Below, one piece after another: positions 4,892 through 12,559 of a DNA stretch of 24,000 bases. The notes below the pieces were generated by a model. That model did not search any database and was not told where the DNA came from. It was given only the letters and a program-made list of their open reading frames with translations. The position numbers and the translations under genes were made by a program. This stretch comes from Rouxiella aceris (lineage in GTDB: Bacteria > Pseudomonadota > Gammaproteobacteria > Enterobacterales > Enterobacteriaceae): contig NZ_JAADJU010000005.1 in NCBI RefSeq assembly GCF_012933545.1, positions 324,525 to 348,524 of the forward strand. The letters are read 5' to 3'. Within the stretch, counting starts at the first letter, position 1; each line of letters begins with the position of its first letter.

Positions 4892-6127
4892 TTATGCGTC
4901 GCGTTCACGGGGCTGACTGGCGGGGCGCATCATGGCGTAGATCGCCACCAGCGCCGCCAGAAACCCCGAGGCGGCACCGACTCCCAGCGACCAGCGCGGG
5001 CCAAAATGGTCGGCGACCCAACCAACAATAGGCGCACCAATCGGCGTACCGCCCAGAGCCACGCCGACGCGCAGCGCCATTACCCGTCCGCGCATGGCGG
5101 GCTCGGTGGCCAGTTGCATCAGACTGCTGCTGGTATTGGTAAAGGTGATAGCGGCGATACCGGTGATCACCAAGGCGCCGGCAAAATACCAATAGCCCGG
5201 TGCCATGGCGGCCAGCAGACCGCCGATGCCAAATATTACTGCCCCGATCAACAGTGAAGCAAACTGGGGTCTGTCGCGCCCGGCGGCGATCAGTGCACCG
5301 GACAGCGTGCCAATGGCCATAAACGACGACAACAAACCATAGCCGCGTGCGTCGGTATGAAAGACGCCCACCGCCATGGTGGAAAGAAATATCGGGAAGT
5401 TCAGGCCAAAGGTACCAATTAGAAAGAGCATAATCAGCATGGCTTTCAGATCCGGACGCTGCCAGACATAGCGCAGCCCTTCGCTAAAACTGCCACGTAC
5501 CCGTTGGGCGCGGGCATTACTCCGCAGCTCTGCCACGCGAAATAAACTCAGCGAAGCGAGGACGGCAACAAAACTAATGCCGTTAAGCAAAAATGCCCAG
5601 CCAGTGCCTACCGAAGCGATGGTCAGGCCGGCAATGGCTGGTCCCACCATGCGCGCGGCGTTAAAGGAGGTGGAGTTGAGCGCCACCGCATTGGACAGAT
5701 CCTCTTCGCCAACCAGCTCGGCAACAAAGGTTTGCCGCACCGGGGCATCAAAGGCGGCGGCACTGCCGAACAGAAAGGCGAAGACATAGACATGCCATAG
5801 CTGCACCAGGCCGCTAACGGTAAGCAGACCGAGCAATAACGCCAGCACGCCCATCGTCCCCTGGGTAACCAGCAGTAGTTTGCGCTGATTAAAGTAGTCA
5901 GCGGCGAACCCGGTCCACGGCAATAAGAGCATCTGCGGGCCAAACTGTAGCGCCATAACGATACCCACCGCCGAGGCATTATGGTTGGTCAACTGGGTCA
6001 GAACTAACCAGTCTTGTGCGGTGCGCTGCATCCAGGTGCCAATATTAGAGATCAGTGCGCCGACTGCCCAGACACGATAGTTGAAGCTGCGCAAAGAACG
6101 AAAAGTACCTCGGGTCGCAGTGGTCAT
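4892..6127 (-). CDS. MFS transporter, EntS/MFS_3-like (12-TM efflux-type)
   Basis: 411 aa and highly hydrophobic with about 12 predicted helices. The N-terminal FRSLRSFNYRVWAVGALISNIGTWMQRTAQDWLVL is typical of the enterobactin-exporter-like MFS_3 family. It lies immediately downstream of a MarR gene on the same strand. Confidence 0.85.
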   Translation of the reverse strand: MTTATRGTFRSLRSFNYRVWAVGALISNIGTWMQRTAQDWLVLTQLTNHNASAVGIVMALQFGPQMLLLPWTGFAADYFNQRKLLLVTQGTMGVLALLLGLLTVSGLVQLWHVYVFAFLFGSAAAFDAPVRQTFVAELVGEEDLSNAVALNSTSFNAARMVGPAIAGLTIASVGTGWAFLLNGISFVAVLASLSLFRVAELRSNARAQRVRGSFSEGLRYVWQRPDLKAMLIMLFLIGTFGLNFPIFLSTMAVGVFHTDARGYGLLSSFMAIGTLSGALIAAGRDRPQFASLLIGAVIFGIGGLLAAMAPGYWYFAGALVITGIAAITFTNTSSSLMQLATEPAMRGRVMALRVGVALGGTPIGAPIVGWVADHFGPRWSLGVGAASGFLAALVAIYAMMRPASQPRERDA

Positions 6128-6200
6128 AGGCGGAAGACCGCCGGGGAAACGTGTTCATTATGGGTCATGGTTGCTTGTCCAGACAGAGAGTGGCTATGGT

Positions 6201-6635
6201 TTAAAACTCGGCCAGGCGCTGCAAAAGTTTAACCGCGTCGGCAAGTTGTTGCTGTTCACTGGCAGACAGTTGCGCAAGCATTGCCCGTGTTAGCCAGTCC
6301 TCTTTGACCGCCCGGCTGGCATATAGCTTTTGCCGAAACGTTGGCGTCAGGGCGACCAGCGTCTGGCGGCCATCGTGTGGATCAGGGGTACCGTTGACCG
6401 CTCCCATGGTCTGCAGCGCCGCGACCGTGACGCGCATAGACTGCGGACGTACGCTTTCAGCTCGCGCCAGCGCCGAGACGGTGGCAGGGCCGTCACGATC
6501 CAGACGTAGCAACACCGATTTTTGCGACGAGCTAAAATCACCGGGTTGCGCCTGCTCACGCAAGCGGCGGATCAACTTACCGGCACTAATGCGCACTTCT
6601 GCGGCAAGGGCGGCTAGCTGTAAGGCTTCGGGCAT
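6201..6635 (-). CDS. MarR-family transcriptional regulator
   Basis: 144 aa. The winged-HTH core ...SSSQKSVLLRLDRDGPATVSALARAESVRPQSMRVTVAALQTMGAVNGTPDPHDGRQTLVALTP is the classic MarR pattern (D-x-R at the wing). It is co-directional with, and 73 bp upstream of, the MFS gene. Confidence 0.85.
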   Translation of the reverse strand: MPEALQLAALAAEVRISAGKLIRRLREQAQPGDFSSSQKSVLLRLDRDGPATVSALARAESVRPQSMRVTVAALQTMGAVNGTPDPHDGRQTLVALTPTFRQKLYASRAVKEDWLTRAMLAQLSASEQQQLADAVKLLQRLAEF

Positions 6636-6847: not shown

Positions 6848-7969
6848 TTAGTAGAGTTCGCCCAGGGATGCGGCGTTAAAATCTTCCAGTTCAGCGGAAT
6901 TGCCGCTGCGGATTTTGCTGACCCAAAGCGGATCGCTGAGAATAGCGCGACCGACGGCGATCAGGTCAAACTCGTTACGTTCCAGGCGATGGATCAGATT
7001 ATCCAGCCCCGCCGGTTTTGAGCCTTCGCCGCTAAAGGATCCCATAAAGTCGCCGGACAGGCCGACCGAGCCGACGCTGATGGTGGCCGCGCCGGTGATT
7101 TTTTTCGCCCAGCCGGCAAAGTTCAGGCCCTGTTCGCCATCAATCTCCGGGAATTCCGGCTCCCAAAAACGACGTTGTGAGCAGTGCAGGATATCGACCC
7201 CGGCTTCGACCAGTGGCACCAGCCAATCGCTCATCTCATCAGGTGTCTGCGCCAGGCGGGTGGCAAAGTCCTGCTGCTTCCATTGGCTCAGGCGCAGGAT
7301 CAGCGGAAAATCATCGCCGACGGCCGCGCGCATGCTTTTTACCACTTCGGCGGCAAAACGCGAGCGCTGCTTGAGGGTGGCACCGCCATATTGGTCAGTA
7401 CGCTGATTGGTGGCGGCCCAAAAGAACTGATCGATCAGATAACCGTGGGCACCGTGGATCTCGGCGACATCAAAACCTAAACGTTTGGCATCGGCGGCGG
7501 CGGCGGCGAAAGCGGCAATGGTATCGGCGATAGCTTCATCGCTCATGGCAACGCCGCGCGGTTGATCGGGCCCGACCAGCCCGGATGGACTTTCCACCGG
7601 CGCTTCAGGGACCCATTCGGTCATAAAGCTGGCCACCGAGCCGGTATGCCAGATCTGTGGGCCCATTTTGCCGCCCGCGGCGTGGACTTCATTGATTACC
7701 CGTTGCCAGCCGGCAAGGGCCGCTTCACCATAAAATAGCGGAATATTTTCGTCGTTCCTTGAGGCCGGGCGATTAATTACCGTGCCTTCCGAGAGGATTA
7801 AGCCCACATCGTTGGCCGCCCGGCGTTGATAATAGGCAGCAATGTTTTCCCCAGGAATACCTTTCGGGGCAAAACTGCGTGTCATGGGGGCCATGACGAT
7901 ACGGTTTTTTAGCGTCAGATTTTTCAGCGTAAAAGGTTTAAATAACGCGTCGACATTTAATGTGGTCAT
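6848..7969 (-). CDS. NADH:flavin oxidoreductase, Old Yellow Enzyme family (alkene reductase-like)
   Basis: 373 aa. The N-terminus LFKPFTLKNLTLKNRIVMAPMTR..., then ...QIWHTG..., ...EIHGAHGYLIDQF... and ...RTDQYGG... are the canonical OYE TIM-barrel FMN and substrate motifs. Confidence 0.88.
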   Translation of the reverse strand: MTTLNVDALFKPFTLKNLTLKNRIVMAPMTRSFAPKGIPGENIAAYYQRRAANDVGLILSEGTVINRPASRNDENIPLFYGEAALAGWQRVINEVHAAGGKMGPQIWHTGSVASFMTEWVPEAPVESPSGLVGPDQPRGVAMSDEAIADTIAAFAAAAADAKRLGFDVAEIHGAHGYLIDQFFWAATNQRTDQYGGATLKQRSRFAAEVVKSMRAAVGDDFPLILRLSQWKQQDFATRLAQTPDEMSDWLVPLVEAGVDILHCSQRRFWEPEFPEIDGEQGLNFAGWAKKITGAATISVGSVGLSGDFMGSFSGEGSKPAGLDNLIHRLERNEFDLIAVGRAILSDPLWVSKIRSGNSAELEDFNAASLGELY

Positions 7970-8004
7970 CGTATTGTTATCTCTTGGGTTAGGAGTTTTT
8001 TATA

Positions 8005-8019
8005 GTATATTATGTATAC
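8005..8019. promoter_or_regulatory. Small dyad GTATA-N5-TATAC in the OYE/hxlR divergent intergenic region (possible HxlR operator)
   Basis: The inverted repeat was read directly from the sequence. It sits in the AT-rich core of the 102-bp divergent promoter region. There is no further support. Confidence 0.3.
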
Positions 8020-8071
8020 CAGACGTCAATCAGGCACCTGCACGCTACCAGGTAGCCAAAAGGAAACCACC

Positions 8072-8470
8072 ATGTCGAACTCGCAACCGGTTTTTTCCGT
8101 TGCTCAATGCCCACACCGTCTGCTGCTCGATCAGATTGCCGATAAATGGTCGGTATTGATCCTCGGTGCACTGTGCGAGAAACCGCTGCGCTTTAATGTG
8201 ATCAAACGGCAACTTGAAGGCATTACGCAAAAAGCGCTAACGCAAAGTCTGCGGAGGTTGCAGCGCAACGGTATTGTGGAACGGCGTGTGATTGCCACTT
8301 CACCGGTGGCCGTCGAGTACGAGATCACACCGCTTGGCCGTACGCTAAAAGAACCTTTTCAGGCTCTCTATAACTGGACCATGACCTATCTACCCGAGGT
8401 GGAACGGGCACGTTTGGCTTTTGATCTTGAAATTAATGATTTACGCGAAGCTTATCAACCTACTGCGTAA
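8072..8470 (+). CDS. HxlR-family (DUF24/MarR-like) transcriptional regulator
   Basis: 132 aa from the ATG at 8072 (AAGGAAA upstream). CPHRLLLDQIADKWSVLILGALCEKPLRFNVIKRQLEGITQKALTQSLRRLQRNGIVERRV...VEYEITPLGRTL is the typical HxlR wHTH signature (C-P ... GDKW ... RF ... L ... I ... LT ... L ... L ... G ... R ... Y ... VEY ... T ... G). Divergent pairing with a flavin reductase is a common arrangement for this family. Confidence 0.85.
   Translation: MSNSQPVFSVAQCPHRLLLDQIADKWSVLILGALCEKPLRFNVIKRQLEGITQKALTQSLRRLQRNGIVERRVIATSPVAVEYEITPLGRTLKEPFQALYNWTMTYLPEVERARLAFDLEINDLREAYQPTA
8366..8467 (+). repeat. Direct repeat copy A (functional 3' end of hxlR)
   Basis: This 102-bp segment recurs exactly 1065 bp downstream (9431-9532), with about 12 substitutions and no indels by manual alignment. 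Confidence 0.85.
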
Positions 8471-8731
8471 TCACTAATATCTGCGAAGAAAGTTTTTACC
8501 GTTCATTGAAGATGGAATATCTCTATTGCTAACGCTTATATCAGCGGGGAAGTGATGTGAAGGGTAATTTCTTCAATACGGATATTTATAAATGGATCAC
8601 AGACTGCTGACAAAGTCCATTATTAGGGAGAGTGCACCGTTGGGGTCGTAGCGGGCTTGCCCGCCGGAGCGCCCCTGGGTGTGCTATGCCCGGGTATCTC
8701 GATCATCAAGACGACTTTGTCATCAAACTCA

Positions 8732-9019
8732 TCACCTCATTCTTTCGCTTGCTAAGTGATAAACATCACTGCGTTCACGCTTACCCACAGCAACAACTGC
8801 GATAACCAATATTTCGTCAATAACCTGATATACCAGGCGGAAACCAGAGGCTCGAAGTTTTATTTTATAGCAGTCCTTTATGCCACGTAATTTTGACGAT
8901 GGAATATGTGGATTTTCACAACATTTTTTTAATTTCTTTGCAAACTGTTGCTGAATGGTCTTATCCAGCTTCTGCCACTCTTTCAGCGCATCTTCCCTGA
9001 ATTTGACCTTATAATTCAT
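8732..9019 (-). CDS. relE: Type II toxin, RelE/StbE (ParE/RelE superfamily) mRNA interferase
   Basis: 95 aa. ...ALKEWQKLDKTIQQQFAKKLKKCCENPHIPSSKLRGIKDCYKIKLRASGFRLVYQVIDEILVIAVVAVGKRERSDVY closely parallels E. coli RelE (ALKEWRKL..., KLRGMPDCYKIKLRSSGYRLVYQVIDEKVVV-V--VGKRERSEVY) as recalled. Its start overlaps the antitoxin stop by 4 nt. Confidence 0.88.
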   Translation of the reverse strand: MNYKVKFREDALKEWQKLDKTIQQQFAKKLKKCCENPHIPSSKLRGIKDCYKIKLRASGFRLVYQVIDEILVIAVVAVGKRERSDVYHLASERMR

Positions 9020-9267
9020 AGATAGCTATCCAGATCTATTTCAAGTAGCGGTTGGTTACCGCGCTCACTGACCAGTTTAACCAGCTCCTGATCATCCAGG
9101 GCGTCGAGTATTTTTTCATAGAGTTCTGCGGGTACACAATAGAATGCAGGTTGATTACGGTTCAGTATCGCGACAGGGAAACCGTCACCGGCATTGACTG
9201 TAGCCATAGGGTTCTTTTTTAACTCGCTTACGCTGGCGCTGGTATCACTTAAAATAATGTTCGGCAT
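9016..9267 (-). CDS. Type II antitoxin, Phd/YefM (StbD-like) family
   Basis: 83 aa. The N-terminal SVSELKKNPMATVNAGDGFPVAILNRNQPAFYCVPAELYEKILDALDD fits the Phd/YefM fold signature (S...ELR.N....v......pv.I..rn.p.avlv....ye). It lies upstream of the toxin and overlaps it by 4 nt. GAGGGTGAG lies upstream of the ATG. Confidence 0.85.
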   Translation of the reverse strand: MPNIILSDTSASVSELKKNPMATVNAGDGFPVAILNRNQPAFYCVPAELYEKILDALDDQELVKLVSERGNQPLLEIDLDSYL

Positions 9268-9278
9268 AACTCACCCTC

Positions 9279-9335
9279 AAGACTGTTTAACAGGTCTTTA
9301 AAGGTAGCAATCTAAAGACCTACTAACAAGTCTTT
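9279..9335. promoter_or_regulatory. Probable TA autoregulatory operators / promoter
   Basis: There are two imperfect dyads built on AAGAC...GTCTT: aagactgtttaacaggtctt (9279-9298) and aaagacctactaacaagtcttt (9314-9335). They lie 12-68 nt upstream of the antitoxin start. On the minus strand, TTGTTA-N17-TACCTT overlaps them. Confidence 0.5.
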
Positions 9336-9430
9336 TTAACGTTTTTTGTACAGTTGGGCTGCCCGAGCGTAAACCTCACTCGGTGAAACAGTGAGCGAGA
9401 CTGAGTCTGTCTGAGCAAATTATTGAGGTA

Positions 9431-9532
9431 TTCTATAACTGGACCATGACCTATCTGCCCGAGGTGAAACGCGCAGGTTTGGCTTTTGATCAGCAAGCTA
9501 ATGATTTACGCTAAGCCTATCAACCTACTGCG
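9431..9532 (+). pseudogene. Displaced, decayed copy of the hxlR 3' end (direct repeat copy B)
   Basis: This copy is about 88% identical to 8366-8467 in the same register. In the homologous reading frame, the GAA codon of copy A (8447-8449) is TAA here (9512-9514). There is no upstream coding continuity. Confidence 0.8.
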
Positions 9533-9571
9533 TTATAACGATGATTGCCCTTTGTGGCCCGGAGAATCAGC

Positions 9572-10207
9572 ATGTATGTTCCCCCGCCGTTTCGCGAAAA
9601 CCGCACCGAAGTGCTTTACGATCTGATTGCTCACTATCCCCTCGGGACGCTGGTCAGCCAGACTGACGGGCAACTGGATGCCATGCATCTGCCGTTTGAG
9701 ATTAACCTTGCCGACAACGGCACGGCCACCCTGCTGGCCCACGTGGCGCGCGCCAATCCAATCTGGCGCGAAGTGGCCAACGGCAGCGACGTGCTCATCG
9801 TGTTTCGCGGCGGTGATGCTTATATTTCCCCGAACTGGTATCCGAGCAAACAGCAAACGCATCGTCAGGTACCCACCTGGAATTATCGCACAGTCCATGT
9901 GCGCGGGCAGATTACTTTTCGCGATGACCTGCCGTTTCTGCATGATGTTCTCACCAGGCTGACTGCACGACAAGAAGCCACGCACACGCTGCCCTGGCAA
10001 ATCGGTGATGCCCCCGAGGACTATATCGCCGGTATGCTCAAGGCGATTGTCGGGGTAGAGATCACCATTAGCGAGATCGTTGGCTGCGTTAAGCTCGGGC
10101 AAAATAAAAACCAACAAGACCTGCAAGGGGCAGCAAACGGCGTTATTGAACAGGGTAATCTGATCATTGGCGAAGCCATGCTGGCGGGACTTAAAGATAA
10201 AAACTGA
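9572..10207 (+). CDS. paiB: PaiB-family FMN-binding (pyridoxamine-phosphate-oxidase-like) putative transcriptional regulator
   Basis: 211 aa from the ATG at 9572 (GGAGA upstream). MYVPPPFRE......L..LI..YP.GTLV......L.A.HLPF....., H.ARANP.W......VL.VF.G..AYISP.WY.......VPTWNY..VH..G resembles B. subtilis PaiB as recalled. Confidence 0.82.
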   Translation: MYVPPPFRENRTEVLYDLIAHYPLGTLVSQTDGQLDAMHLPFEINLADNGTATLLAHVARANPIWREVANGSDVLIVFRGGDAYISPNWYPSKQQTHRQVPTWNYRTVHVRGQITFRDDLPFLHDVLTRLTARQEATHTLPWQIGDAPEDYIAGMLKAIVGVEITISEIVGCVKLGQNKNQQDLQGAANGVIEQGNLIIGEAMLAGLKDKN

Positions 10208-10258
10208 GGTCAGGTGGAGGTATTGCGGCAACGGCCATCCTGTGCCGTTGCCGAGGGT

Positions 10259-11104
10259 TTATAACACCTTGTCCAAAAACTGCTGTGTACGTGAGTGTTG
10301 TGGCCGCTCCAACACCTGTGCGGCGCTGCCGCTTTCTACAATACGACCCTCCACCATAAATACCACCCGGTCGGCGACCTGACGGGCAAAACCGATTTCA
10401 TGGGTTACCACCACCATCGTCACGCCGGAGCGGGCCAGCTTTTTAATGACTTCCAGCACTTCGCCCACCAGTTCGGGATCCAGCGCCGAGGTCGGTTCAT
10501 CAAATAACATCACTTTCGGGTTAAGGGCCAACGCACGGGCAATGGCGATGCGCTGCTGCTGTCCACCGGAAAGATGCCGTGGCCACGCCTGCGCCTTGTC
10601 TCGCAAGCCGACGGTATCAAGCAAGGCATAGGCCTGGGCAATGGCCTGTTTGCGGCTGTACAGTCGATGGACAATCGGCGCTTCGATGATGTTATCCAGT
10701 ACGGTCATATGTGGGAACAGATTGAAGTTCTGAAAGACATAACCGACCTGGGTGCGCTGTTTAAGGATCGCCCGTTCTTTTAACTCATAAAGTGTATTGC
10801 CTTTACGCCGGTAGCCGACGTAATCGCCATCTATCTGAATAAAACCTTCATCTACCCGCTCAAGATGGTTAATGGTGCGCAACAAGGTTGATTTTCCGGA
10901 CCCGGAAGGGCCGAGGATCACCGTTACCGTGCCAGGTTCAATGGTCAGGCTGACGTTATCCAGCGCCTTGTAGTTACCGTAGTATTTGCTGAGATTACGA
11001 ATGGCAATGCGTCCGGCAAGTTGTCCAGGCTCTGCCGTCAGGCGTGGTTGTTCTGCCTGCCGCGGGGTCGGACGCTTAACAAAGAGATCAAAAGCTTCTG
11101 ACAT
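10259..11104 (-). CDS. Amino-acid-type ABC transporter, ATP-binding subunit
   Basis: Walker [11 protein letters not shown]-loop, signature [15 protein letters not shown], Walker [12 protein letters not shown] and H-loop VVVTHE. The overall pattern is like the GlnQ/ArtP/HisP class. Confidence 0.92.
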
Positions 11105-11121
11105 AAGGCATCACTCCGTTT

Positions 11122-12036
11122 TCATGGTCGGGCCGTGCGCCATTGACGCAGGCGTTGCAGGGTTGTCGGTGCGATATGGCGTATTGCCCCGCGCGAAAAA
11201 TAGCGTTCGACATAATATTGCAGTATCGACAGGACGGTGGTGATCAGCAGGTACCAGACGGTGGCCACCATCAGCAACGGAATAACCTGTTGCGTGCGGT
11301 TGTAGATCACCTGCACGGTATAGAACAGTTCCGGCATCGATAAGACATAAACAATGGATGTGCCCTTGGCCAGGCTGATCACTTCGTTAAAGCCAGTGGG
11401 TAAAATAGCGCGTAGCGCCTGCGGTAAAATAATGCGCAAGGTGCGACGCCAGGCGGGTAATCCCAGTGCCGCTGCGGCTTCTTGTTGCCCATGATCGACA
11501 CCGATAATTCCGCCACGGATAATTTCGGCGGTATAGGCAGATTGCACCAGCGATAACCCCAGTACCGCCACCGAAAATTGATCCAGCAGATCGACGGTGG
11601 AATGACGGAAAAATTCAATCGAGGTAAAGGGAATCCCCAGGGACAGGCTGTCGTATAAATAAGAGAAGTTATAGAGAACGATAAGCACCAGCAGCAGCGG
11701 CAATGAGCGAAACAGCCAGATATATCCCCAGGCCAGAGCGCTTAATAGATAGGACTTTGATAAGCGCGCCAACGCCAGCAAGGTGCCAAAGATAATGCCA
11801 AACAGGGTGCCCAGCAGTGTCAGCAGCAGCGTTTTACCAAGACCGGCGAGGATCACCGGGTCAAAAAACCACTGGCGAAATACTCCCCATTCCCAACGCG
11901 GGTTGGTGGCAATGGATTGCACAATGGCCAGCAAAATAAACAGGGCAAAAAAAGCCGCCAACAGGCGCAGCGGATAGCGTGCCGCCACCACCTTTAATGG
12001 CCGATCATCAGCGTCATATTTATTGATATCACTCAT
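11122..12036 (-). CDS. Amino-acid-type ABC transporter permease (HisM/GlnP/ArtQ class)
   Basis: 304 aa from the ATG at 12036. It carries the EAA-type loop motif ...YTAEIIRGGI..V..GQ.EAA.ALGL........I.LPQA.R..LP. The start was chosen because it overlaps the GNAT stop by 8 nt, which suggests translational coupling. The further-upstream part of the ORF is Cys/Arg-rich and not protein-like. Confidence 0.88.
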   Translation of the reverse strand: MSDINKYDADDRPLKVVAARYPLRLLAAFFALFILLAIVQSIATNPRWEWGVFRQWFFDPVILAGLGKTLLLTLLGTLFGIIFGTLLALARLSKSYLLSALAWGYIWLFRSLPLLLVLIVLYNFSYLYDSLSLGIPFTSIEFFRHSTVDLLDQFSVAVLGLSLVQSAYTAEIIRGGIIGVDHGQQEAAAALGLPAWRRTLRIILPQALRAILPTGFNEVISLAKGTSIVYVLSMPELFYTVQVIYNRTQQVIPLLMVATVWYLLITTVLSILQYYVERYFSRGAIRHIAPTTLQRLRQWRTARP

Positions 12037-12559
12037 AAGCCTGCTCCCGGTGCGCGGTCTGCGGCAGGCTGTCGGGCGACAGTAGCTTGATAAACGGCAA
12101 GCGTCCGTCATAAGGCGGCAGCGAGTAGCTTTCTGGATCGCGCTGGGTGTCAAACTGCGGTTGATAGTGCAAAGAGAGGTAGAGCCTGACCGCCTCGGGT
12201 TGCCGGAAACCGGTGGTCAGAAACAGCCGACGATAACCCAGGTTCAAAGCCAGTTGTTCCAGTTGCCGGACCACTTTTTGCGCCAGCCCCTGACGGCGCA
12301 GCGAGGTATCGGTCCAGATCCGTTTTAGCTCGGCAGTCTGCTCGTCGTAACGTTTAAACGCCCCCATGGCAATGGGGCGTCCTTGACGCAACAGCACAAT
12401 AAACACCCCGTCTGGCGGGGCATAAACGTCTACTGATTCGGCCTCTTGCTCGCCAAAATAGTCGCCGTAACGGGCACGATATTCGCCAAACAAACCGGCA
12501 ATAACGGCCGCAATCAGCGGGTCATCAGCGCGGGTGTGAATAAAGGTATCCTGGCTCAT
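12029..12559 (-). CDS. GNAT-family N-acetyltransferase embedded in the transporter operon
   Basis: 176 aa from the ATG at 12559 (GGAGGAG upstream). The acetyl-CoA motif A region is ...ELKRIWTDTSLRRQGLAQKVVRQLEQLA...GYRRLFLTT (R-x-x-G-x-A/G pattern). Confidence 0.82.
   Translation of the reverse strand: MSQDTFIHTRADDPLIAAVIAGLFGEYRARYGDYFGEQEAESVDVYAPPDGVFIVLLRQGRPIAMGAFKRYDEQTAELKRIWTDTSLRRQGLAQKVVRQLEQLALNLGYRRLFLTTGFRQPEAVRLYLSLHYQPQFDTQRDPESYSLPPYDGRLPFIKLLSPDSLPQTAHREQAYE

Follow-up and report, generated by a model that had tools for sequence, protein, structure and literature searches.

A toxin-antitoxin (TA) cassette of 1,065 bases was found in the tail of the gene for an HxlR-family regulator (hxlR) in most strains of a Rouxiella species, enclosed by two diverged copies of the 3' end of that gene and followed by paiB, a gene for a PaiB-like FMN-binding protein. 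The locus was analysed in a stretch of 24,000 nucleotides of Rouxiella aceris (assembly GCF_012933545.1, contig NZ_JAADJU010000005.1, positions 324,525 to 348,524 of the forward strand), which is called the window below and whose numbering is used throughout. Because empty sites exist in related genomes, the structure is an insertion and not an ancient fixed duplication. We consider it reasonably probable that a solitary type II TA islet brought a replacement hxlR tail with it, displaced the resident tail and was later deleted between the repeats.

Repeated hxlR ends, occupied sites and empty sites

The segments 8366-8467 and 9431-9532 were compared by pairwise alignment and were identical at 90 of 102 positions, with no gap, at a fixed offset of 1065 and in a shared reading register. 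A match of this quality cannot arise by chance, and the gap-free, in-register repeat of about 88% identity (12 substitutions) that had been noticed from the letters alone, in what we call the sequence-only reading, was upheld. A repeat search widened the pair to 8358-8474 and 9423-9539 (85% identity); it was the sole long repeat within 7500-10500. Over 8366-8474 (109 nt), 14 sites differed between copy 1, which is attached to the gene, and copy 2, which lies downstream. The exact blocks between the differing sites measured 25 nt (8367-8391 in copy 1, equal to 9432-9456 in copy 2), 9 nt, 15 nt, 13 nt (8434-8446) and 16 nt (8453-8468). The G+C content of the insert was ~40-45% compared with 55-60% in the flanks, i.e. 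lower by 10-15 points. A transposon target-site duplication was rejected on the same ground as in the sequence-only reading: the repeats span 109-117 bp and have diverged by 12-15%, whereas identical repeats of 2-14 bp would be expected.

Related loci were collected by exact-protein look-ups. The arrangement hxlR-TA-paiB was found in 14 distinct contigs beside the window (L081 and L087-L099, with L092 belonging to the same scaffold as L087), which came from 12 samples, were 98.5-99.9% identical to the window and represented at least three haplotypes. The neutral diversity of the islet spacers among the occupied haplotypes was only ~2-3%. The closest named record was a metagenome-assembled genome (MAG) of R. 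aceris, L082, in which the site was empty. In the occupied contigs L087/L092 and L096, patches at which one copy takes the state of the other were observed (8407C, 8432G, 8452C and 9434C), and these appear to be the product of gene conversion between the repeat copies.

Three kinds of empty site, in which hxlR abuts paiB, were found and are referred to as E1, E2 and E3. Sites of this form had been anticipated by the sequence-only reading as the mark of an acquired islet, and they were present in relatives rather than lacking throughout. According to the gene maps of L082, L191 and L193, paiB starts 57 nt (E1 and E3) or 33 nt (E2) past the hxlR stop codon.

E1 comprised the R. aceris MAG and four Logan contigs (L083-L086), which shared a single haplotype with an hxlR of 125 amino acids (aa). 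Its tail had the copy-1 state at all ten diagnostic sites on the left and the copy-2 state at all four on the right, with the switch in 8434-8446. The E1 lineage was 95% identical to the window genome-wide, yet only ~1% diverged over ~7000-9800, a patch that spans the oxidoreductase gene upstream, hxlR and the start of paiB and is centred on the islet site. The contrast with the genome-wide divergence of L082 (~5%) points to an exchange of the locus among lineages through homologous recombination.

E2 was found in a single contig, L191, which over 12 kb matched the window at 99.2% and 98.7% identity and so lies inside the occupied clade. Its hxlR encodes 133 aa; the tail was copy-1-like through 8447, where GAA is kept, and copy-2-like from 8469 (TTA TAA), with the switch in 8448-8468. 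E3 was found in L192 and L193, from a sister lineage of 93% identity, with an hxlR of 125 aa that ends in HQANDLR and the stop. This tail was copy-2-like: it reads CATCAAGCT against CAGCAAGCT, has TAA at the same codon and continues with GCC and TTATAAC.

E1 and E2 are thus hybrids, and by their sequences they read as simple one-switch recombinants of both repeats that switch at different points. Different switch points within exact blocks of 13-16 nt argue for homologous rather than site-specific deletion. Both were treated as real alleles and not as assembly joins, on the assumption that the k-mers of the assembler exceed these 13-16-nt blocks; E1 was moreover present in five contigs. Since a hybrid empty site was found both in the 99% clade (E2) and in the 95% lineage (E1), at least one loss of the islet took place, and probably two. 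The suggestion that the addiction module had stabilised the locus thus gained no support.

Which tail is resident

At 10 of the 14 diagnostic sites the state of E3 is that of copy 2; among these are all four right-hand sites, the QQA/HQA cluster, the TAA, the GCC and TTATAAC. At the other 4 it is that of copy 1. Copy 1 departs from E3 at ten of the 14 sites, and eight of these ten cluster in 8427-8472. Copy 2 stands alone at four sites, including changes of E to K and of R to G in the motif LPEVE-x-AR. Among 60 homologues, the R of this motif was invariant and the E was replaced in only three; K and G at such conserved positions would be expected in a displaced tail. Judged against E3, the gene-attached tail has the look of an import, and the downstream copy that of the resident end which was displaced. 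The TAA at 9512-9514 had been taken for the sign of a dead gene end. However, it is shared with the 125-aa allele of E3 and is therefore the native stop and not a lesion; the 125-aa alleles at E1 and E3 both use it as their working stop.

The opposite polarity was also considered and is unlikely, though it has points in its favour. The LEI-type tail would then be resident and E1 (or E2) ancestral, and a 1,065-bp circle or concatemer would have been inserted in the manner of Campbell. The circle would have carried the TA genes and a 117-bp foreign hxlR tail ending in KRAGLAFDQQANDLREAYQPTA and a stop codon; the crossover would have taken place in the 13-nt block 8434-8446, or in 8453-8468 if E2 were ancestral, and the left part of copy 2 and the right part of copy 1 would be the foreign halves. 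E1 is composed exactly of the left part of copy 1 and the right part of copy 2, as an ancestral attB would look, one later deletion would suffice instead of two, and E3 sides with copy 1 at four of the ten left-hand sites. However, the supposedly foreign left half would resemble the allele of the sister lineage at six of these ten sites, the supposed resident would bear four clustered changes within 7 nt, and the crossover would have used a block of 13-16 nt while the exact block of 25 nt was ignored. The tail junction predicted by this polarity (QQANDLREAYQ, used as a degenerate pattern) had no match in metagenome contigs, and E2 would still be a secondary deletion because it carries G8447.

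Under the explanation that we prefer, an islet made up of toxin, antitoxin, operator and two short spacers would have been inserted in the last ~25-35 hxlR codons of a Rouxiella aceris-like chromosome. Copy 2 beside paiB would be the resident tail, which ends in QQANDLR and a stop, completed a protein of 125 aa, was displaced and has since been drifting without a coding function. The end of copy 1 (ending in LEINDLREAYQPTA and a stop, from at most 8427 to 8474) would have come with the islet and now completes a protein of 132 aa. The exchange by which incoming and resident DNA were joined would fall within the identical blocks of 8367-8426, which permit no finer placement. Integration may have occurred by homologous or homology-facilitated recombination of the host, using DNA from a relative with TA genes behind its own hxlR, or by a recombinase acting in trans. 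Either hxlR-like sequence would have been present on each side of the incoming DNA, as in a circle, in a concatemer or in a donor that bore the same duplication, or an illegitimate join would have been made inside hxlR at ~8358-8366. Because E1 (125 aa) and E2 (133 aa) carry the imported LEI tail without the TA genes, they would be secondary deletions, in which recombination between the direct repeats removed the TA genes and left hybrid tails.

This sequence of events is suggested by the conversion patches, by two apparent deletions with different junctions and by the sister lineage that stands nearer to copy 2. It corresponds to the first of two origins offered in the sequence-only reading, recombination with a foreign hxlR allele, which fits best; the second, a relic of a larger element, was left without a trace in the plasmid, phage, viral and metagenome collections.

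Several points weigh against the proposed explanation. Two deletions are needed, whereas one is enough if E1 or E2 is ancestral. The polarity was read from a single outgroup lineage (E3) at 14 sites, four of which side with copy 1. No unoccupied allele with the predicted resident tail, ending in EVERARLAFDQQANDLR and a stop, was found among the related contigs, and no donor with an LEI-type tail and the left spacer was found in any of the collections searched (genome, metagenome, plasmid, phage and viral). For the first origin of the duplication, none of the conceivable intermediates (a circle, a concatemer, a donor already duplicated or a linear fragment joined illegitimately inside hxlR) was seen. 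The history of E1 is also hard to read, because that lineage carries a recombined patch of low divergence at this very locus.

It was proposed as a rather improbable alternative that the cassette is an integrase-dependent miniature element, a relic of an island or prophage, or an integrase-less satellite resembling a cis-mobilizable element (CIME), targeting the hxlR tail. A tyrosine or serine recombinase, since deleted or encoded elsewhere, would have recognised 8367-8391, and the diverged 83 nt to the right would be a surrogate gene end. The layout agrees with such an element, since the homology carries an exact core at its 5' edge, continues as a diverged in-frame tail and reaches 4 nt beyond the end of that tail. 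The same layout of a core and a diverged in-frame replacement tail is known from e14 and phage 21 in icd and from tRNA-targeting islands. However, no integrase open reading frame (ORF) or fragment of one was present between the repeats, a duplicated tail was found in 0 of 160 hxlR loci from other taxa, and a TA or paiB neighbour in 0 of 80 loci of the genome collection. The core, the tails and the spacer had no match in viral contigs, phages or plasmids, and both observed losses had different junctions outside the core, unlike site-specific excision. In viral contigs the LEI-type tail, the 25-nt core and a 28-mer of the left spacer were searched for, each with no match. Among relatives of hxlR from the genome and metagenome collections, aa identity did not exceed 81%, and none of them had paiB, TA genes or a duplicated tail nearby.

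A related reading, to which we give a slight chance, regards the 1,065-bp unit as a recombinase-less integrative cassette composed of the TA operon and an attP formed by the surrogate hxlR tail. A recombinase of the host or of a helper would insert the unit at the 25-nt core; the TA module itself would then be mobile, and the hybrid empty sites would be background homologous losses.

It was also considered whether the two copies could have arisen on the spot, which appears very improbable. The insertion would have doubled ~110 bp of the resident tail, by illegitimate joining upstream of the homologous crossover or at a long staggered break, and the 12% difference would have accrued in place. 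The changes of copy 2 at conserved codons are consistent with decay after a duplication, and in homology-facilitated illegitimate recombination the join may in principle be made upstream of the anchor. However, the copies have diverged by 12-15%, four to six times as much as the islet spacers vary (~2-3%), and ongoing gene conversion should homogenise the copies. Moreover, the differences of copy 1 are clustered, and it is these that depart from the outgroup.

Cargo, spacers and neighbouring genes

The positions of the features are given in Table 1.

Table 1. Features of the interval from hxlR to paiB, in window coordinates
Feature	Position	Strand	Remarks
HxlR-family regulator gene, 132 aa here	8072-8470	+	PF01638, E=5e-26, residues 22-109
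Repeat copy 1, attL-like	8358-8474	+	functional hxlR tail ending in LYNWTMTYLPEVERARLAFDLEINDLREAYQPTA and a stop; holds the 25-nt block 8367-8391
Left spacer of the islet, AT-rich	8475-8600		in the occupied contigs that reach the region: L081, L087/L092, L091, L096
Candidate palindromic MITE-like insertion, 130 nt, GC-rich patch	8601-8730		just past the toxin stop codon; ATCAC duplicated at 8596-8600 and 8726-8730
RelE/StbE-family toxin gene, 95 aa	8732-9019	-	PF05016, 60.7 bits (cut-off 23); TIGR02385, 40.2 bits (cut-off 27.9)
Phd/YefM-YafN-like antitoxin gene, 83 aa	9016-9267	-	4-nt overlap with the toxin gene (9016-9019)
TA promoter/operator region	9268-9351	-	two dyads, 9279-9300 and 9313-9334, upstream of the antitoxin gene
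Right spacer of the islet	9352-9422		no match elsewhere
Repeat copy 2, attR-like	9423-9539	+	hxlR tail ending in FYNWTMTYLPEVKRAGLAFDQQANDLR and a stop, TAA 9512-9514; runs directly into the paiB leader
PaiB-like FMN-binding protein gene	9572-10207	+	PF04299, E=3e-62

The toxin belongs to the RelE/StbE family, as it scored above the curated thresholds of both profiles. It was aligned with E. coli RelE (4V7K) with no gap (E=2e-31), and K52, K54, R61, R81 and Y87, the catalytic and ribosome-contact residues of E. coli RelE, were all identical. The antitoxin scored 25.5 bits against PF02604, under the cut-off of 29.8, and 39 bits against 99 for the YafN model; its homologues on E. coli plasmids are annotated as Phd/YefM (RefSeq). 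The antitoxin gene comes first, overlaps the toxin gene and is preceded by a palindromic operator, which is the layout of a type II TA operon. Of the cargo read from the sequence at the outset, the RelE-type toxin was confirmed by the Pfam and TIGRFAM profiles and the dyad operators by the inverted repeats, and the antitoxin is regarded as Phd/YefM-like.

Between the repeats, the only ORFs of 40 aa or more were the TA genes and short ORFs with no support, none of them long enough for a recombinase; one of the short ones, 8632-8805, had no Pfam match. The absence of an integrase or transposase between the copies, noted at the outset, was in this way borne out. No sigma-70 promoter or intrinsic terminator scored above chance in the islet.

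Five of six polymorphisms in the toxin gene among the occupied strains were non-synonymous (K13E, K28N, K32I, C33Y and I67V), and the antitoxin was identical, with no variation, in 15 contigs. These small numbers may fit early erosion of the toxin, under relaxed or attenuating selection.

The operon together with ~85 nt of its promoter (8734-9351) was 82% identical at the DNA level to a TA module present on ~200 E. coli and Klebsiella plasmids; on pUMNK88_Ent the homologue is located ~760 bp from partition genes of the ParA/ParB type. Homologues with 88-92% aa identity occurred on E. coli IncF plasmids and, at unrelated positions in the chromosomes of Pectobacterium, Acerihabitans and others, as solitary islets. 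The Pectobacterium islet lies between genes for a siderophore-interacting protein and a pyridine nucleotide-disulphide oxidoreductase, the Acerihabitans islet between fumC and tus, and on further enterobacterial contigs the islet adjoins yjdP. The homology to the relatives in Pectobacterium, Acerihabitans and E. coli plasmids was limited to ~8734-9351. At the Pectobacterium, Acerihabitans and yjdP sites, one locus each, no flanking repeat longer than 23 nt was found (66-94% identity). Long flanking repeats as a general trait of this TA family were therefore ruled out, and the repeat belongs to the Rouxiella insertion and not to the TA family.

Another solitary TA insertion polymorphism was observed in Pectobacterium, a few kb from the RelE islet. 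A module of the hipBA type (HTH_3, Couple_hipA, HipA_C) is placed between LysR and LysE genes in two genomes and not in a third (L105 compared with L106 and L107, ~100-1900 of the locus).

About 260 bp between hxlR and the toxin gene had been left unassigned in the sequence-only reading, and roughly half of this DNA, the GC-rich patch 8601-8730, proved to be a separate palindromic insertion. The segment was missing from the occupied strain L087/L092 with a clean junction, was present in a single copy within the window and matched intergenic DNA of Yersinia frederiksenii and Serratia proteamaculans plasmids at 80-88%. It folds into one long hairpin of -49.8 kcal/mol, although the z-score was only -1.75. 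We read it as a candidate insertion of the miniature inverted-repeat transposable element (MITE) type that landed after the toxin stop codon. The rest of that DNA, the left spacer 8475-8600, had no match outside the Rouxiella species in plasmids, phages, viral contigs or 160 hxlR loci of other taxa. A plasmid, integron or prophage backbone, which had been thought worth looking for in the spacers, was not seen: the plasmid and phage search matched only the 130-nt palindrome and the conserved hxlR block. No known RNA was found by an Rfam search of the unassigned DNA. A third, decayed copy of the tail in the right spacer was rejected, because the similarity to copy 2 was not significant (54 of 500 shuffles scored equally).

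Copy 1 supplies the last ~15-25 codons of hxlR. The HxlR Pfam domain stops at residue 109, so that the replaced tail is largely outside the DNA-binding fold. This may explain the persistence of three allele lengths (125, 132 and 133 aa) within one species complex.

Upstream, hxlR is divergent from a gene for a flavin oxidoreductase of the old yellow enzyme (OYE) type (6848-7969). The OYE-type NADH:flavin oxidoreductase gene and hxlR form a conserved divergent two-gene unit (6848-8470), which recurs in Gamma-, Alpha- and Betaproteobacteria with a DNA identity of 68-75%; what follows hxlR varies among the loci that carry it. Further upstream, a MarR-family gene (6201-6635) was missing in L087/L092, in which ~260 nt (5959-6223) had been swapped for ~100 unrelated nt, and the adjacent major facilitator superfamily gene was called shorter there (354 compared with 411 aa). 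Downstream, the E3 contig L192 carried an island (8212-12378 of the contig, from ~11100 of the window onward) with a large serine recombinase of 555 aa and several unknown ORFs. It stands where genes for an ATP-binding cassette permease and an acetyltransferase follow an ATPase gene, and the sister contig L193 had no such island.

Comparison with known systems

The attL/attR-type layout of an element that supplies a replacement gene end, as recognised in the sequence-only reading, was borne out by the architecture of the locus. In common with integrative elements, direct repeats with an exact core (the 25-nt block) and single-copy empty sites (three alleles) were found. On the other hand, no tyrosine or serine recombinase was encoded, and no excision at the core that restores attB was seen, as E1 and E2 switch outside the 25-nt block. 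Elements such as e14 and phage 21 in icd and the tRNA islands likewise have an exact core, an in-frame tail that replaces the native one, the native tail shifted to the far end, and empty sites. The Rouxiella islet differs from them in that it has no integrase, is 1 kb long, holds one TA operon and was lost through hybrid junctions at different points. A Xer-dependent element (an integrative mobile element exploiting Xer, IMEX, or a pdif module) was rejected, as the best match to the enterobacterial 28-bp dif consensus was 14 of 28 positions at either junction.

The locus also resembles the products of homology-facilitated illegitimate recombination and of Campbell-type insertion, in which foreign DNA is anchored by short diverged homology, a segment is duplicated and later loss takes place between the duplicates. 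No donor or circular intermediate was seen for the Rouxiella islet. With respect to the cargo, the locus was compared with E. coli RelBE and with plasmid modules of the StbDE type: the toxin aligns with E. coli RelE without gaps, and the operon is 82% identical in DNA to the plasmid TA module. The Rouxiella module, whose activity is a prediction, differs in its chromosomal location and in its antitoxin, which is Phd/YefM-YafN-like and not a ribbon-helix-helix protein of the RelB kind.

Solitary TA islets have reportedly been treated by Hayes & Van Melderen 2011 and by Ramisetty & Santhosh 2016, as cited in Belot et al. 2026. Type II TA islets that stand alone between core genes of a chromosome are a familiar kind of object; the routes of their integration are described as poorly characterised by Belot et al. 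2026 (PMC13617665). Like these islets, the Rouxiella module has two genes with their own promoter and no mobility genes, its presence or absence distinguishes close strains, its G+C content is lower than that of the surroundings, and it was lost despite being an addiction-type module. In Photorhabdus, Belot et al. 2026 described the ParE/RelE 26 islet, in which a 24-bp res-I-like palindrome is duplicated around the islet and present as a single copy at the empty site; the duplicate points to a Tn3 resolvase (PMC13617665). In contrast, the flanks of the Rouxiella islet are homeologous 3' ends of the target gene, 109-117 bp long, and no palindromic duplicate is present. An islet associated with Tn3 and res was accordingly ruled out, since the repeat search found no res-like palindrome duplicated around the TA genes and the flanking repeat is a gene tail. 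Belot et al. 2026 concluded that addiction modules do not secure long-term retention (PMC13617665), and the Rouxiella locus agrees with that conclusion.

The TA family is thus common, and the architecture, in which a replacement tail is combined with a series of occupied, empty and hybrid sites, is uncommon and informative. The insertion parts paiB from hxlR and alters the C-terminus of HxlR (125, 132 or 133 aa), with possible regulatory consequences. Within one species complex, the locus keeps a record of occupied sites, an empty site in a sister lineage, two hybrid scars and conversion patches, and it shows, in natural strains, a RelE-type addiction module that was deleted all the same. We infer a route different from the res-site route of Photorhabdus, one by which the TA module would travel with a replacement gene end and be removed by recombination between the old and the new end.

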